Of a stretch of DNA of 64,000 bases, positions 12,188 through 22,362 are shown in pieces. This DNA comes from Escherichia coli (lineage in GTDB: Bacteria > Pseudomonadota > Gammaproteobacteria > Enterobacterales > Enterobacteriaceae), in NCBI RefSeq assembly GCF_003334355.1, contig NZ_QOWP01000007.1; one strand, written 5' to 3'. Below the pieces are notes generated by a model, which saw only the letters and a program-made list of their open reading frames with translations, was not told the origin of the DNA and did not search any database. The position numbers were made by a program, and so were the translations under genes. Each line of letters starts with the position of its first letter. The first letter of the stretch is position 1.

Positions 12188-13453
12188 ATGTCTCAAAATA
12201 AGGCTTTCAGCACGCCATTTATCCTGGCTGTTCTTTGTATTTACTTCAGCTACTTCCTGCACGGCATTAGTGTTATTACGCTTGCCCAAAATATGTCATC
12301 TCTGGCGGAAAAGTTTTCCACTGACAACGCGGGCATTGCCTACTTAATTTCCGGTATCGGTTTGGGGCGATTGATCAGTATTTTATTCTTCGGTGTGATC
12401 TCCGATAAGTTTGGTCGTCGGGCGGTGATATTAATGGCAGTAATAATGTATCTGCTATTCTTCTTTGGTATTCCCGCTTGCCCGAATTTAACTCTCGCCT
12501 ACGGTCTGGCAGTGTGCGTAGGTATCGCTAACTCAGCGCTGGATACGGGTGGCTACCCCGCGCTCATGGAATGCTTTCCGAAAGCCTCTGGTTCGGCGGT
12601 CATACTGGTTAAAGCGATGGTGTCATTTGGGCAAATGTTCTACCCAATGCTGGTGAGCTATATGTTGCTCAATAATATCTGGTACGGCTATGGGCTGATT
12701 ATTCCGGGTATTCTATTTGTACTGATCACGCTGATGCTGTTGAAAAGCAAATTCCCCAGCCAGTTGGTGGACGCCAGCGTAACTAATGAATTACCGCAAA
12801 TGAACAGCAAACCGTTAGTCTGGCTGGAAGGTGTTTCATCGGTACTGTTCGGTGTAGCCGCATTCTCGACCTTTTATGTGATTGTGGTGTGGATGCCCAA
12901 ATATGCGATGGCTTTTGCTGGTATGTCAGAAGCTGAGGCATTAAAAACCATCTCTTATTACAGTATGGGCTCGTTGGTCTGTGTCTTTATTTTTGCCGCA
13001 CTACTGAAAAAAATGGTCCGGCCCATCTGGGCTAATGTATTTAACTCTGCACTGGCAACAATAACAGCAGCCATTATCTACCTGTACCCTTCTCCACTGG
13101 TGTGTAATGCCGGCGCCTTTGTTATCGGTTTCTCAGCAGCTGGCGGCATTTTACAGCTCGGTGTTTCGGTCATGTCAGAGTTTTTCCCAAAAAGCAAAGC
13201 CAAAGTCACCAGTATTTATATGATGATGGGTGGACTGGCTAACTTTGTTATTCCGCTGATTACCGGTTATCTGTCGAACATCGGCCTGCAATATATCATT
13301 GTTCTCGATTTTACTTTCGCGCTGCTGGCCCTGATTACCGCAATTATTGTTTTTATCCGCTATTACCGCGTTTTTATTATTCCTGAGAATGATGTGCGGT
13401 TTGGCGAGCGCAAATTTAGCACCCGGTTAAACACAATTAAGCATAGAGGTTAA
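12188..13453 (+). CDS. ydiN: MFS transporter YdiN
   Basis: 421 aa from [11 protein letters not shown]...; paralogous to ydiM. Confidence 0.9.
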
Positions 13454-15264: not shown

Positions 15265-16860
15265 ATGAAACCTGTAAAACCACCTCGTATTAATGGACGA
15301 GTGCCGGTCCTGTCGGCACAGGAAGCGGTGAATTATATTCCCGACGAAGCAACACTTTGTGTGTTAGGCGCTGGCGGCGGTATTCTGGAAGCCACCACGT
15401 TAATTACTGCTCTTGCTGATAAATATAAACAGACTCAAACGCCACGTAATTTATCGATTATTAGTCCAACAGGGCTTGGCGATCGCGCCGACCGCGGTAT
15501 TAGTCCGCTGGCGCAAGAAGGTCTGCTGAAATGGGCATTATGCGGTCACTGGGGACAATCGCCGCGTATTTCTGATCTCGCAGAACAAAATAAAATTATT
15601 GCTTATAACTATCCACAAGGTGTACTTACACAAACCTTACGCGCCGCCGCAGCCCACCAGCCTGGTATTATTAGTGATATTGGCATCGGGACATTTGTCG
15701 ATCCACGCCAGCAAGGCGGCAAACTGAATGAAGTCACTAAAGAAGACCTGATTAAACTGGTCGAGTTTGATAACAAAGAATATCTCTATTACAAAGCGAT
15801 TGCGCCAGATATCGCCTTCATTCGCGCTACCACCTGCGACAGCGAAGGCTACGCCACTTTTGAAGATGAGGTGATGTATCTCGACGCATTGGTTATTGCC
15901 CAGGCGGTGCACAATAACGGCGGTATTGTGATGATGCAGGTGCAGAAAATGGTTAAGAAAGCCACGCTGCATCCTAAATCTGTCCGTATTCCGGGTTATC
16001 TGGTGGATATTGTGGTGGTCGATCCGGATCAAACCCAACTGTATGGCGGTGCACCGGTTAACCGCTTTATTTCTGGTGACTTCACCCTTGATGACAGTAC
16101 CAAACTTAGCCTGCCCCTAAACCAACGTAAATTAGTTGCGCGGCGCGCATTATTCGAAATGCGTAAAGGCGCGGTGGGGAATGTCGGCGTCGGTATTGCT
16201 GACGGCATTGGCCTGGTCGCCCGAGAAGAAGGTTGTGCTGATGACTTTATTCTGACGGTAGAAACAGGTCCGATTGGCGGAATTACTTCACAGGGGATCG
16301 CCTTTGGCGCGAACGTGAATACCCGTGCCATTCTGGATATGACGTCCCAGTTTGATTTTTATCACGGTGGCGGTCTGGATGTTTGTTATTTGAGTTTTGC
16401 TGAAGTCGACCAGCACGGTAACGTCGGCGTGCATAAATTCAATGGTAAAATCATGGGCACCGGTGGATTTATTGATATCAGTGCCACTTCGAAGAAAATC
16501 ATTTTCTGCGGCACATTAACTGCGGGCAGTTTAAAAACAGAAATTACCGACGGCAAATTAAATATCGTCCAGGAAGGACGGGTGAAGAAATTTATTCGGG
16601 AACTACCGGAAATTACTTTCAGCGGAAAAATCGCTCTCGAGCGAGGGCTGGATGTTCGTTATATCACTGAGCGCGCAGTATTCACGCTGAAAGAAGACGG
16701 CCTGCATTTAATCGAAATCGCCCCTGGCGTCGATTTACAAAAAGATATTCTCGACAAAATGGATTTCACCCCAGTGATTTCGCCAGAACTCAAACTGATG
16801 GACGAAAGATTATTTATCGATGCGGCGATGGGTTTTGTCCTGCCTGAAGCGGCTCATTAA
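15265..16860 (+). CDS. ydiF: Acetate CoA-transferase YdiF (fused alpha/beta)
   Basis: 531-aa ORF. Confidence 0.9.
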   Translation: MKPVKPPRINGRVPVLSAQEAVNYIPDEATLCVLGAGGGILEATTLITALADKYKQTQTPRNLSIISPTGLGDRADRGISPLAQEGLLKWALCGHWGQSPRISDLAEQNKIIAYNYPQGVLTQTLRAAAAHQPGIISDIGIGTFVDPRQQGGKLNEVTKEDLIKLVEFDNKEYLYYKAIAPDIAFIRATTCDSEGYATFEDEVMYLDALVIAQAVHNNGGIVMMQVQKMVKKATLHPKSVRIPGYLVDIVVVDPDQTQLYGGAPVNRFISGDFTLDDSTKLSLPLNQRKLVARRALFEMRKGAVGNVGVGIADGIGLVAREEGCADDFILTVETGPIGGITSQGIAFGANVNTRAILDMTSQFDFYHGGGLDVCYLSFAEVDQHGNVGVHKFNGKIMGTGGFIDISATSKKIIFCGTLTAGSLKTEITDGKLNIVQEGRVKKFIRELPEITFSGKIALERGLDVRYITERAVFTLKEDGLHLIEIAPGVDLQKDILDKMDFTPVISPELKLMDERLFIDAAMGFVLPEAAH

Positions 16861-16873
16861 CAGGAGTATAATG

Positions 16874-18025
16874 ATGGATTTTTCTTTAACTGAAGAACAA
16901 GAACTGCTGCTGGCCAGTATTCGCGAACTGATTACGACTAACTTTCCGGAAGAGTATTTCCGCACCTGCGATCAAAACGGGACATATCCGCGTGAGTTTA
17001 TGCGGGCGCTGGCGGATAACGGTATTTCCATGCTTGGCGTGCCGGAAGAATTTGGTGGTATCCCTGCGGATTACGTCACCCAAATGCTGGCGCTGATGGA
17101 AGTGTCAAAATGCGGTGCTCCGGCATTTTTAATTACCAACGGTCAATGTATTCACAGTATGCGCCGTTTCGGTTCTGCAGAGCAGCTACGTAAAACGGCA
17201 GAAAGCACCCTGGAAACCGGCGACCCCGCCTATGCCCTGGCGTTGACGGAACCAGGTGCTGGCTCAGATAACAACAGTGCCACCACCACTTACACGCGTA
17301 AAAACGGCAAGGTTTACATCAACGGACAGAAAACCTTTATTACCGGTGCGAAAGAGTACCCGTATATGCTGGTGTTGGCGCGCGATCCGCAACCGAAAGA
17401 TCCCAAAAAAGCCTTCACCCTGTGGTGGGTCGACTCCAGTAAGCCCGGCATTAAGATTAACCCGCTGCATAAAATCGGCTGACATATGCTCAGCACCTGC
17501 GAAGTCTATCTCGACAACGTGGAAGTTGAAGAGAGCGACATGGTGGGCGAAGAAGGAATGGGTTTCCTCAATGTGATGTACAACTTTGAGATGGAGCGCC
17601 TGATCAACGCCGCGCGCAGCACCGGCTTTGCCGAATGCGCCTTTGAAGATGCCGCCCGCTATGCCAACCAACGTATCGCTTTTGGTAAGCCCATTGGTCA
17701 TAACCAGATGATCCAGGAAAAACTGGCGCTGATGGCGATTAAGATTGACAACATGCGCAACATGGTGCTGAAAGTGGCATGGCAAGCCGATCAGCATCAG
17801 TCACTGCGCACCAGCGCGGCGCTGGCAAAACTGTATTGCGCACGTACCGCAATGGAAGTCATTGATGATGCGATTCAAATCATGGGCGGTCTGGGCTATA
17901 CCGATGAAGCGCGCGTCTCCCGCTTCTGGCGTGATGTCCGTTGTGAACGTATCGGCGGCGGTACAGACGAAATTATGATTTACGTAGCAGGTCGGCAGAT
18001 CCTGAAAGACTATCAGAACAAATAA
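16874..18025 (+). pseudogene. ydiO: Acyl-CoA dehydrogenase YdiO, interrupted by an in-frame TGA at 17483-17485 (codon 204 of 383)
   Basis: Two same-frame ORFs (to 17482; from 17486) that together give exactly 383 codons; acyl-CoA dehydrogenase motifs on both sides of the stop. Confidence 0.8.
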
Positions 18026-18067: not shown

Positions 18068-18979
18068 TTATCCAACAAGACTTACCGGTTGAGGAAATTC
18101 AGATAGGATTTCTTGTTCCGCAAAACAGTTTTTAAATTGCCTGCGGTAATCGCTGGGTGAACAGCCGACATGGCGCAAAAACAGTTTGCCAAAGTGATCG
18201 ACATTTTCATAACCCACACGCCAGGAGATCTCTGCCTGTGATAATTCAGTATTAGTGAGTAACCATTTCGCTTCCGTCATACGCCGTTGAATAACATAGT
18301 TAATTGGGGAAATACGATACTCTTTGGTAAATTCATGGCAAATATAACTGACGCTGGCACGAAATTTTTTCGATAACTGTTCTAAAGTGATTTTTTCGCG
18401 ATAATTATTATTCAGATAGAAAAGAATATCTTTTATCAGAACATCTTTTTTAATATACCCCTACTCCGAACGATAAGCATTTTTAAAGTTTTCGTAGTAA
18501 AGAATTGCTAATGTATAGGCAAATGCATCCCATAACGAAGATGTTTGGCTATTTTTACTTTGCGGCAAAATCACACTTAGCTCATTAAATAAGGTTTTAA
18601 TGACTTCTTTTCCCTGCCCCGCGGCAATTACCGGACAAGAATGCGGTTGCAGTAGATGATTTTCCTCAGCCCCCTGAAACTGAAAGCCGTACAGCGCACA
18701 GGTACACGTCGTTGCCGGATCGTTAACGTCAGAGGCCACCGCATGCAGCCTGCCGCGTTCTATCACCACTATATCATCTGCATGCGCGACATATAACGAA
18801 GAATCGATGGTAAACCTTGCCACCCCTTTCTTGACGTAAATCAGCTCGGTTTCATTGTCATGAACGTGATGTCCAGACTCCCATTTTGGATCATCGCTAA
18901 ATGCAAAACGTGAAAGCCGTGGCGTTTTACCAGCGACAAACAGCGTTTCACTGGCATTATCAAAACAGCGTTGATACAT
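18068..18979 (-). pseudogene. ydiP: AraC-family regulator YdiP, interrupted by an in-frame TAG at 18461-18463 (codon 173 of 303)
   Basis: N-terminal cupin part (172 aa) and C-terminal HTH part are in the same frame; hand translation of 18281-18460 is open and AraC-like, so a single stop is the only lesion. Confidence 0.75.
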
Positions 18980-19294: not shown

Positions 19295-20059
19295 ATGAAA
19301 ATAATAACCTGCTTTAAGCTGGTGCCTGAAGAACAGGACATTGTTGTCACTCCAGAATACACCCTGAATTTCGACAATGCCGACGCCAAAATCAGCCAGT
19401 TCGATCTCAATGCCATTGAAGCTGCAAGCCAGCTTGCAACAGATGACGATGAGATAGCCGCGCTGACCGTTGGCGGCTCATTGTTGCAGAACTCGAAAGT
19501 GCGCAAAGACGTGCTATCCCGCGGGCCGCACAGCCTGTATATGGTGCAGGATGCACAACTTGAGCATGCACTGCCTCTCGATACCGCAAAAGCGCTGGCG
19601 GCAGCAGTTGAAAAGATCGGCTTCGATTTACTGATCTTTGGTGAAGGTTCCGGCGACCTTTATGCCCAGCAGGTTGGCTTGCTGGTCGGAGAAATTCTGC
19701 AACTTCCGGTGATTAATGCAGTGAGTGCTATTCAGCGTCAGGGCAATACACTGGTGATTGAACGCACGCTTGAAGATGACGTTGAAGTTATTGAACTCTC
19801 TGTTCCAGCCGTGCTCTGCGTCACCTCCGATATTAACGTGCCACGCATTCCTTCGATGAAAGCCATTCTCGGCGCGGGTAAAAAACCGGTAAATCAGTGG
19901 CAGGCAAGTGATATTGGCTGGAGCCAGAGCGCACCACTTGCTGAACTGACCGGCATTCGCGTACCGCCGCAAACAGAACGTAAGCACATCATTCTCGATA
20001 ACGATTCGCCGGAGGCCATTGCCGAGCTGGCGGAACATCTGAAGAAAGCCCTGAACTGA
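19295..20059 (+). CDS. ydiQ: Electron transfer flavoprotein beta-like subunit YdiQ
   Basis: 254 aa from MKIITCFKLVPEEQD... Confidence 0.9.
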   Translation: MKIITCFKLVPEEQDIVVTPEYTLNFDNADAKISQFDLNAIEAASQLATDDDEIAALTVGGSLLQNSKVRKDVLSRGPHSLYMVQDAQLEHALPLDTAKALAAAVEKIGFDLLIFGEGSGDLYAQQVGLLVGEILQLPVINAVSAIQRQGNTLVIERTLEDDVEVIELSVPAVLCVTSDINVPRIPSMKAILGAGKKPVNQWQASDIGWSQSAPLAELTGIRVPPQTERKHIILDNDSPEAIAELAEHLKKALN

Positions 20060-20078
20060 AGCCTACGGAGAAGAAACG

Positions 20079-21017
20079 ATGAGTCAATTAAACAGCGTCT
20101 GGGTCTTTAGCGATAATCCTGAACGTTATGCTGAACTGTTTGGCGGCGCTCAGCAATGGGGCCAACAGGTGTATGCCATTGTACAAAATACCGACCAGGC
20201 GCAGGCAGTTATGCCTTATGGTCCAAAATGTATTTATGTTCTTGAGCAAAACGACGCGCTGCAACGCACTGAAAATTACGCCGAAAGCATTGCTGCTCTG
20301 CTGAAAGATAAACACCCCGCTATGTTGCTACTGGCCGCGACGAAACGTGGTAAAGCTCTGGCAGCACGGTTAAGTGTGCAACTGAATGCGGCGCTGGTGA
20401 ACGATGCCGCGGCGGTGGATATTGTCGATGGTCACATTTGCGCCGAACACCGGATGTATGGCGGGTTAGCGTTCGCTCAGGAAAAGATCAACAGCTCGCT
20501 GGCGATCATTACCCTTGCACCCGGTGTTCAGGAACCGTGCGCCAGTGATAACTCTCATCAGTGCCCGACAGAAACGGTACCTTATGTTGCTCCGCGTCAT
20601 GAAATTCTCTGTCGCGAGCGCCGTGCGAAAGCGGCAAGCAGCGTGGACCTGAGCAAAGCAAAACGTGTGGTTGGCGTCGGTCGTGGTCTGGCAGCGCAGG
20701 ATGACCTGAAAATGGTCCACGAACTGGCGGCGGTGCTGAATGCTGAAGTCGGCTGTTCACGTCCAATTGCCGAAGGCGAGAACTGGATGGAGCGTGAACG
20801 TTATATCGGTGTCTCCGGCGTGTTGCTGAAATCCGATCTCTACCTGACGCTGGGGATCTCCGGGCAGATCCAACATATGGTTGGCGGCAACGGCGCAAAA
20901 GTGATTGTCGCCATCAATAAAGATAAAAATGCGCCAATCTTCAACTATGCCGACTACGGTCTGGTGGGCGATATCTACAAAGTCGTCCCTGCCCTGATTA
21001 GCCAGTTGAGCCGCTAA
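20079..21017 (+). CDS. ydiR: Electron transfer flavoprotein alpha-like subunit YdiR
   Basis: 312-aa ORF. Confidence 0.9.
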   Translation: MSQLNSVWVFSDNPERYAELFGGAQQWGQQVYAIVQNTDQAQAVMPYGPKCIYVLEQNDALQRTENYAESIAALLKDKHPAMLLLAATKRGKALAARLSVQLNAALVNDAAAVDIVDGHICAEHRMYGGLAFAQEKINSSLAIITLAPGVQEPCASDNSHQCPTETVPYVAPRHEILCRERRAKAASSVDLSKAKRVVGVGRGLAAQDDLKMVHELAAVLNAEVGCSRPIAEGENWMERERYIGVSGVLLKSDLYLTLGISGQIQHMVGGNGAKVIVAINKDKNAPIFNYADYGLVGDIYKVVPALISQLSR

Positions 21018-21072
21018 TTCCCCTTTCAACCACATCTCCCGCTGTAAACGCAGCGGGAAGGGAGCATAACGC

Positions 21073-22362
21073 ATGTCGGATGACAAATTTGATGCCATTG
21101 TGGTCGGTGCGGGCGTTGCTGGTAGCGTTGCCGCACTGGTCATGGCACGAGCCGGGCTGGATGTCCTGGTGATAGAACGCGGCGACAGTGCCGGATGTAA
21201 AAACATGACCGGCGGGCGCCTTTATGCCCACACACTTGAAGCAATCATTCCAGGCTTTGCAGCATCAGCGCCGGTAGAACGCAAGGTCACACGCGAGAAA
21301 ATCTCCTTCTTAACCGAAGAGAGCGCCGTTACCCTCGATTTTCACCGCGAGCAACCAGATGTTCCGCAACACGCATCTTATACCGTATTGCGTAATCGTC
21401 TGGACCCGTGGTTGATGGAACATGCCGAGCAGGCGGGCGCACAGTTTATCCCGGGAGTTCGCGTCGATGCGCTGGTTCGTGAAGGAAACAAGGTAACTGG
21501 CGTGCAGGCTGGGGATGATATTCTCGAAGCGAATGTGGTGATTCTGGCTGATGGCGTTAACTCGATGCTTGGCCGCTCGCTGGGAATGGTTCCCGCTTCC
21601 GATCCGCATCATTACGCTGTTGGTGTTAAAGAGGTTATTGGCCTCACACCAGAACAGATCAATGATCGCTTTAATATTACGGGCGAGGAAGGTGCCGCCT
21701 GGCTGTTTGCCGGTTCCCCTTCTGACGGCCTGATGGGTGGCGGATTCCTCTATACCAACAACGATTCCGTATCGTTGGGGCTGGTTTGTGGATTGGGTGA
21801 TATCACCCATGCGCAAAAAAGCGTGCCGCAAATGCTGGAAGATTTTAAACAACACCCCGCCATTCGCCCACTAATTAGCGGCGGCAAACTGCTTGAATAT
21901 TCCGCGCATATGGTGCCAGAAGGCGGTCTGGCAATGGTGCCGCAGCTGGTTAACGATGGCGTGATGATCGTTGGTGACGCCGCAGGCTTCTGCCTGAATT
22001 TGGGTTTTACAGTTCGTGGCATGGATTTAGCCATTGCATCGGCTCAGGCTGCCGCCACAACGGTGATCGCCGCCAAAGAACGCGAGGATTTCTCCGCCAG
22101 CAGTCTGGCGCAATACAAACGAGAGCTGGAACAAAGTTGTGTTATGCGCGATATGCAGCATTTTCGCAAGATCCCGGCGCTGATGGAAAACCCGCGCCTG
22201 TTTAGCCAATACCCACGAATGGTAGCCGACATCATGAACGAGATGTTCACCATTGACGGCAAACCAAACCAGCCGGTACGCAAAATGATCATGGGACACG
22301 CGAAGAAAATTGGGCTGATCAACTTGCTGAAAGATGGCATTAAGGGAGCAACCGCGCTATGA
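21073..22362 (+). CDS. ydiS: FAD-dependent oxidoreductase YdiS (FixC-like)
   Basis: 429-aa ORF with N-terminal GxGxxG dinucleotide motif (VVGAGVAGS). Confidence 0.9.
   Translation: MSDDKFDAIVVGAGVAGSVAALVMARAGLDVLVIERGDSAGCKNMTGGRLYAHTLEAIIPGFAASAPVERKVTREKISFLTEESAVTLDFHREQPDVPQHASYTVLRNRLDPWLMEHAEQAGAQFIPGVRVDALVREGNKVTGVQAGDDILEANVVILADGVNSMLGRSLGMVPASDPHHYAVGVKEVIGLTPEQINDRFNITGEEGAAWLFAGSPSDGLMGGGFLYTNNDSVSLGLVCGLGDITHAQKSVPQMLEDFKQHPAIRPLISGGKLLEYSAHMVPEGGLAMVPQLVNDGVMIVGDAAGFCLNLGFTVRGMDLAIASAQAAATTVIAAKEREDFSASSLAQYKRELEQSCVMRDMQHFRKIPALMENPRLFSQYPRMVADIMNEMFTIDGKPNQPVRKMIMGHAKKIGLINLLKDGIKGATAL

Follow-up and report, generated by a model that had tools for sequence, protein, structure and literature searches.

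YdiP, also known as CsiP, has been reported to regulate cold-shock genes and to be non-essential, with deletion of its gene slowing growth at 15°C (PMC9283627). A literature search on ydiP retrieved this functional study; the Q173* allele considered here was not described. A role in anaerobic fatty-acid beta-oxidation has been attributed to the ydi genes (review PMC3896788, citing Campbell et al., 2003), with the function of ydiO still being thinly documented (PMC6412132). The Escherichia coli DNA analyzed here, a stretch of 64,000 nucleotides referred to below as the window, corresponds to the sufABCDSE/ydi/ppsA/aroH/btu/pheST/thrS/chb portion of the chromosome. The YdiP/CsiP protein of K-12-type strains (WP_000284783.1) presents the same residues as those encoded in the window, save at codon 173, and the same architecture, namely, a cupin domain and an HTH_18 domain. 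Unlike WP_000284783.1, the window YdiP ends at residue 172 and does not include the DNA-binding domain. By analogy with the ydiP deletion, the strain from which the window comes would be expected to grow slowly at 15°C.

The only complete genome found to share this lesion is that of strain FLI21 (NZ_CP139808.1), where the 912-bp ydiP gene is 100% identical to that of the window, including the CAG>TAG change at codon 173, and where the ydiN-ydiR haplotype is the same. FLI21 differs from the window in that ydiO is intact, ydiF contains a stop (Q108*), an IS1 element is found in ydiN and the flanking regions are 0.7-1% divergent. Examination of FLI21 positions 470001-506000 further revealed a rearrangement just past btuC at a copy of IS903B, many IS elements, and pseudogenes at ydiJ, ydiK, ydiN (interrupted by IS1) and abgT, with the caveat that errors of assembly could account for some of the frameshifts. 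FLI21 thus looks like an IS-rich, decaying genome. A broader parallel, drawn from 64 kb alone, is offered by the gene decay of Shigella and host-restricted E. coli, given how disrupted ydiP and ydiO, selO interrupted by an ISL3-type element and chbC interrupted by IS1 all lie within a single 64-kb stretch. Unlike those lineages, the window represents an ordinary commensal-type E. coli, close to the fecal isolate PSS-12. In light of these comparisons, ydiP Q173* is an ordinary nonsense pseudogene allele, one that public annotation has already marked and that does not constitute a new type of feature. It is very probably a genuine null allele created by spontaneous point mutation, a rare variant in a lineage in which the locus is decaying.

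The features considered are listed in Table 1. The earlier note had reported that the ydiP frame is open over 303 codons save for one amber codon after residue 172, and translation of the minus strand (18068-18979) indeed revealed that stop and no other internal stop; translation likewise bore out the identities given to ydiP and ydiO. The gene shares 99.9-100% nucleotide identity with annotated E. coli ydiP in more than 5300 genomes. Moreover, its position between ydiO and ydiQ, in convergent orientation with ydiO, is accompanied by the same neighbors in PSS-12, ATCC 8739, and FLI21. Relative to PSS-12, Q173* reflects a single G>A change at position 18463 of the + strand (CAG>TAG). As the ydiP gene forms a transcription unit of its own (monocistronic) and converges with ydiO, its lesion would be without polar effect.

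Table 1. Features of the ydi locus, in window coordinates.
Feature	Coordinates	Strand	Basis
ydiF (CoA transferase), intact in the window	15265..16860	+	ORF list
ydiO (acyl-CoA dehydrogenase) pseudogene, convergent with ydiP, W203*	16874..18025	+	Translation; PSS-12 comparison
ydiP (csiP) pseudogene, AraC-family regulator, 303 codons, one internal amber	18068..18979	-	Translation
Untranslated remnant of ydiP, residues 174-303, encodes HTH_18	18068..18460	-	ORF list; translation; Pfam
Premature TAG, codon 173; wild type CAG (Gln)	18461..18463	-	+ strand reads CTA
Remaining translatable 172-aa cupin/AraC_binding fragment, without DNA-binding domain	18464..18979	-	ORF list; Pfam
ydiQ-ydiR-ydiS-ydiT-fadK operon, divergent from ydiP, intact	19295..24355	+	Coordinates mapped from PSS-12 annotation

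When the repaired YdiP sequence was searched against Pfam, AraC_binding (residues 28-143; 9.4e-10), Cupin_2 (residues 30-89; 7.6e-11), and HTH_18 (residues 202-281; 7.6e-21) were detected. The amber codon, placed between the cupin and HTH domains in the earlier note, does fall in the linker between the two. As such, the N-terminal cupin/AraC-type ligand-binding domain is retained ahead of the stop and HTH_18 is encoded in DNA downstream of it, outside the translated product. The exact 172-residue product is listed under the name "cupin domain-containing protein [E. coli]" in 33 contigs. According to the ORF list, no in-frame ATG, GTG, or TTG is found between the stop and residue 234. The first canonical in-frame start past the stop is the ATG at 18280, which opens an ORF (18068-18280) of 70 residues that does not include the first helix-turn-helix. 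With no canonical restart upstream of that point, the domain with its two helix-turn-helix motifs could not be recovered.

A second lesion is found in the adjacent, convergent ydiO gene. Here too, translation upheld what had been noted earlier, with TGG at 17480-17482, the codon that follows residue 202, having been replaced by the single internal stop of the gene, TGA (G>A at 17482). This allele was seen in 0 of 5363 complete E. coli genomes, and the 202-residue product was found in 86 blocks of a larger assembly collection. Two divergent haplotype families contain W203* in the form of TGA and a third (L017) contains it in the form of TAG, with ydiP being mostly intact where these recurrent haplotypes occur elsewhere. 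Judging from these haplotypes, ydiO W203* is clearly recurrent, with an apparent minimum of 3-4 independent origins, as TGA and as TAG. Across ydiQRST-fadK, alignment with PSS-12 was gap-free, with fadK A161T being the sole difference. This operon is the presumed target of YdiP, as judged solely from the divergent arrangement of the two.

The complete genome closest to the window is that of the human fecal isolate PSS-12 (NZ_AP027697.1), which is 99.95% identical (24 SNPs and one single-base indel over ~61 kb) and in which both ydiO and ydiP are intact. An ISL3-family element of 2985 bp lies in selO (ydiU) at 30116-33100 of the window, with terminal inverted repeats of 24 nt and a duplicated target (30108-30115 and 33101-33108), and is missing from both PSS-12 and FLI21. 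The element is a 99.4% match to a segment found on tet(X) plasmids (e.g., NZ_CP059284.1), annotated as encoding an ISL3 transposase, a permease, and an ArsR/SmtB regulator, and interrupted there by an lnu(G) insert. In addition, an IS1 element begins at 63820 within chbC (chitobiose PTS IIC) and continues past the end of the window (63820-64000); chbC is intact in PSS-12. Five SNPs private to PSS-12, four of them missense, are clustered in ydiN-aroD-ydiF-ydiO (window positions 12876, 14553, 15887, 17086, and 17141), as compared to just 2-4 SNPs per 10 kb between PSS-12 and the window outside this cluster, a clustering that may point to a short recombined patch or to constraint having been relaxed in PSS-12 too. 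Finally, espL1 (window positions about 45300-47200) is frameshifted according to the PSS-12 annotation and the window is colinear there, with two substitutions, such that the window presumably contains the same old pseudogene.

The distribution of the amber allele was considered in complete genomes containing the 61-mer around the ydiP site (n = 5335). Comparison with the ydiP alleles of other genomes, a check proposed in the earlier note, revealed codon 173 to be CAG in 5334 of these and TAG in one, FLI21, for which PGAP lists ydiP (U0532_RS02175) among the pseudogenes with the note "internal stop." Given that a full-length frame with CAG is present in 5334 of the 5335 genomes, the stop is a derived lesion in a conserved ORF rather than a chance break. 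In the larger assembly collection, the exact 172-residue product was found in 59 blocks. Ten carrier loci were fetched (L007-L016), of which four are NCBI drafts and six are Logan assemblies, each from its own SRA run. At 18461-18463 of the + strand, where PSS-12 and ATCC 8739 read CTG, all ten read CTA, as does FLI21. In two of the ten, namely, SRR3951466 (0 differences from the window in 20.5 kb) and SRR3823860 (1 difference in 11.4 kb), the ydiP TAG is found together with the ydiO TGA, and ydiO fragments of 202 and 179 residues were called in both.

The carriers comprise several backgrounds. In the clade containing the window, the ydiP stop is joined by ydiO W203*. In L013, a close relative, the ydiP stop is accompanied by an intact ydiO; in L012, L015, and L016, the ydiP stop is found alone; and in FLI21, L009, and L010, it is accompanied by ydiF Q108* (CAA>TAA, window position 15586). 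Two further carriers, L008 and L011, differ from the window within the 3' part of ydiP. Several complete genomes contain the L008 ydiP haplotype save for a single mismatch, which is most simply explained as the TAG, and this suggests that the stop probably arose more than once. A single origin followed by spread through recombination was considered for L008, with independent mutation being the simpler account in view of that one-mismatch haplotype. For L011, with two mismatches to its best match, an independent origin is less clear than for L008. Taken together, these carriers place the amber allele on two or three ydiP haplotypes at a minimum. Near-identity over ~8 kb between FLI21 and the window was also considered as a sign of shared descent of the stop. 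This was rejected, since ATCC 8739, in which codon 173 is CAG, is equally identical there, indicating that the ~8-kb stretch is a widespread low-diversity haplotype.

Because L013 contains the ydiP stop and an intact ydiO gene, the ydiP lesion probably preceded that in ydiO in the clade containing the window. At the same time, sites 10870 and 18463 are phylogenetically incompatible, with the former grouping the window with PSS-12 and the latter, the site of the stop, grouping the window with L013, so that the order of the two events is not certain. Based on these two sites, the conflict would imply recombination or repeated mutation within a very close clade. A third combination of lesions was found in L021 (ERR8651211), which belongs to one of the divergent ydiO W203* haplotype families and in which that stop is accompanied by a +1 G frameshift in ydiP (L021 position 4030), yielding a product of 215 residues. 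Two hits in the ydi locus are thus found in three independent lineages, i.e., the clade containing the window, the FLI21 clade, and L021, with the order of the hits and the genes involved varying.

Whether codon 173 is a mutational hotspot was addressed in two ways. The wild-type context of the site, CCCCTGCTCC on the + strand, is not CCWGG, which argues against Dcm-related deamination at this position. As a control, the products of ten other transition-accessible ydiP nonsense mutations (at codons 100, 102, 111, 122, 140, 145, 150, 201, 231, and 239) were looked up in the assembly collection. All ten were present, in 1-132 contigs each, counts that may include some short fragments corresponding to contig-end partials. 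At 33 contigs, Q173* falls within this range, arguing against its being unusually frequent; the wild-type protein was found in at least 1000 contigs. Many of the truncated YdiP fragments came from records named Shigella flexneri. The picture that emerges is of Q173* as unremarkable, with every easy ydiP knockout segregating somewhere.

The earlier note had also proposed relaxed selection on the locus and had considered the pair of lesions unlikely to have arisen by chance in intact genes. Between divergent haplotypes, pN/pS values of 0-0.13 were obtained for ydiF, ydiO, and ydiP, reflecting strong purifying selection and arguing against relaxed selection across the species. With such species-wide constraint, the decay of the ydi locus must be recent and lineage-specific, and relaxed selection is retained for particular lineages, in keeping with the double hits in three of them. 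The eight SNPs derived in the window over its first 36 kb, all of which are GC>AT or GC>TA, comprise two nonsense, three missense, two synonymous, and one intergenic change, a spectrum that is the signature of a young, little-filtered branch. In these genes, a stop is the outcome of approximately 4.7% of GC>AT transitions. The probability of at least two nonsense changes among seven coding SNPs under unselected GC>AT mutation is thus ~0.04, and would be lower if both were required to fall in the ydi locus, which represents roughly a quarter of the coding sequence considered; this value is nominal, as the window was picked post hoc because of the very pair of lesions, and a genome on a young branch would carry many such mutations. 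The pairing is, therefore, improbable in the nominal sense alone, and the replication of double hits in three lineages is a better argument for non-independence than is the P value. These recurrent double hits fit, yet do not prove, a release of the remaining pathway from constraint after one of its components has been lost.

Accordingly worded, the reading considered very probable above would run as follows. A spontaneous G:C>A:T mutation converted Gln173 of YdiP into an amber codon, such that translation would end in the inter-domain linker and at most a cupin fragment of 172 residues would be made. This fragment would be unable to bind DNA, rendering the allele null. Q173* would then be kept at low frequency by mutation-selection balance; since poor growth at 15°C has been reported for a ydiP deletion (PMC9283627), the allele may carry a mild cost instead of being neutral. 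In the clone represented by the window, a second and independent nonsense mutation, in ydiO, accompanies the ydiP lesion, with selection on the rest of the ydi locus presumably having been relaxed following the first hit. On the strength of the two stops, the ydiFO/ydiP/ydiQRST-fadK locus would appear to be decaying in this lineage.

The alternative that fares best, albeit an unlikely one, is that loss was adaptive, with inactivation of ydiP and then of ydiO or ydiF having been favored in certain host-associated lineages as a convergent shutdown. The presence of the same amber allele on at least 2-3 haplotypes, the 3-4 or more origins of ydiO W203* in TGA and TAG form, the double hits involving the clade containing the window, FLI21 (ydiF Q108*), and L021 (ydiP frameshift), the abundance of truncated YdiP in records named Shigella flexneri, and the two nonsense changes among seven coding SNPs (P ~0.04) would all be in line with such selection. 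Yet the alleles are very rare, being found in one of 5335 (ydiP) and none of 5363 (ydiO) complete genomes and nowhere at high frequency, all of the comparator nonsense sites were also seen to be mutated, as sampling depth without selection predicts, and the species-wide pN/pS values of 0-0.13 describe genes that are normally kept. It is accordingly doubtful that the recurrent ydiP, ydiO, and ydiF knockouts reflect positive selection, in some gut-adapted E. coli lineages, for silencing of the anaerobic acyl-CoA dehydrogenase/ETF locus represented by the ydi genes, beginning with the regulator. Were this so, the flanking ydi operons would have to depend on YdiP for their expression.

That YdiP remains functional, with the amber codon being read through by a suppressor tRNA (supE-type glnV) or because of natural leakiness, is considerably less probable. 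A CAG>TAG change is exactly what a glutamine-inserting suppressor would correct, and the TGA in ydiO is followed by C (TGACAT), a weak termination context. Occasional decoding of UAG by tRNA-Gln would reinstate the glutamine of YdiP, and occasional decoding of UGA (followed by C) by tRNA-Trp would reinstate the tryptophan of YdiO, such that each allele may be slightly leaky, a caveat on the null-allele reading too. However, the carriers represent several unrelated backgrounds, unlikely all to be suppressor strains, UAG and UGA differ in type, such that one suppressor cannot rescue both, and the stop is not conserved, being found in one of 5335 complete genomes. Moreover, no tRNA gene lies within the 64-kb window and strong suppressors are generally rare in natural isolates.

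Still less credible is a split gene, in which re-initiation at the ATT corresponding to codon 176 would release a free, ligand-independent HTH domain alongside a free cupin domain. Such re-initiation is the sole means by which a free HTH domain could arise. The sequence around the stop reads GGAG-TAG-GGG-TAT-ATT, placing this ATT nine bases past GGAG, and a 128-residue HTH-containing ORF beginning there was called in the public annotations of two carriers (L010 and L012). In addition, some AraC/XylS regulators possess DNA-binding domains that show activity in isolation upon over-production. Against this, ATT is a very poor start and is followed by no canonical start before residue 234, the carriers are too recent to provide evidence of conservation, and the truncation alleles found along the whole of ydiP argue for simple loss. 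The 128-residue call is read as an annotation convenience rather than as a sign of expression. Lastly, an error of sequencing or assembly at one base, raised in the earlier note and conceivable in that both lesions are single-base changes, is highly improbable, since the same TAG is present in FLI21 and in 10 of 10 independent assemblies (the four NCBI drafts and the six Logan assemblies), the TAG and TGA pair recurs in SRR3951466 and in SRR3823860, the latter departing from the window at another site, and both sites lie outside homopolymers; judging from these independent assemblies, the ydiP and ydiO stops can, for practical purposes, be taken as real and base-calling error as out of the question.

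With Q173* considered as a null allele that arose by point mutation, ydiP and ydiO are to be marked as pseudogenes in annotation and should be neither corrected as errors nor, in the case of ydiP, broken up into a "cupin" gene and an "HTH" gene. Both YdiP/CsiP regulation and YdiO activity are predicted to be missing from the strain, and the relevance of this is limited to uses of the strain that involve anaerobic fatty-acid metabolism, reverse beta-oxidation, or cold adaptation. Beyond this strain, the lineages in which the ydi locus was hit twice represent a small natural data set bearing on whether YdiP controls the neighboring ydi operons.
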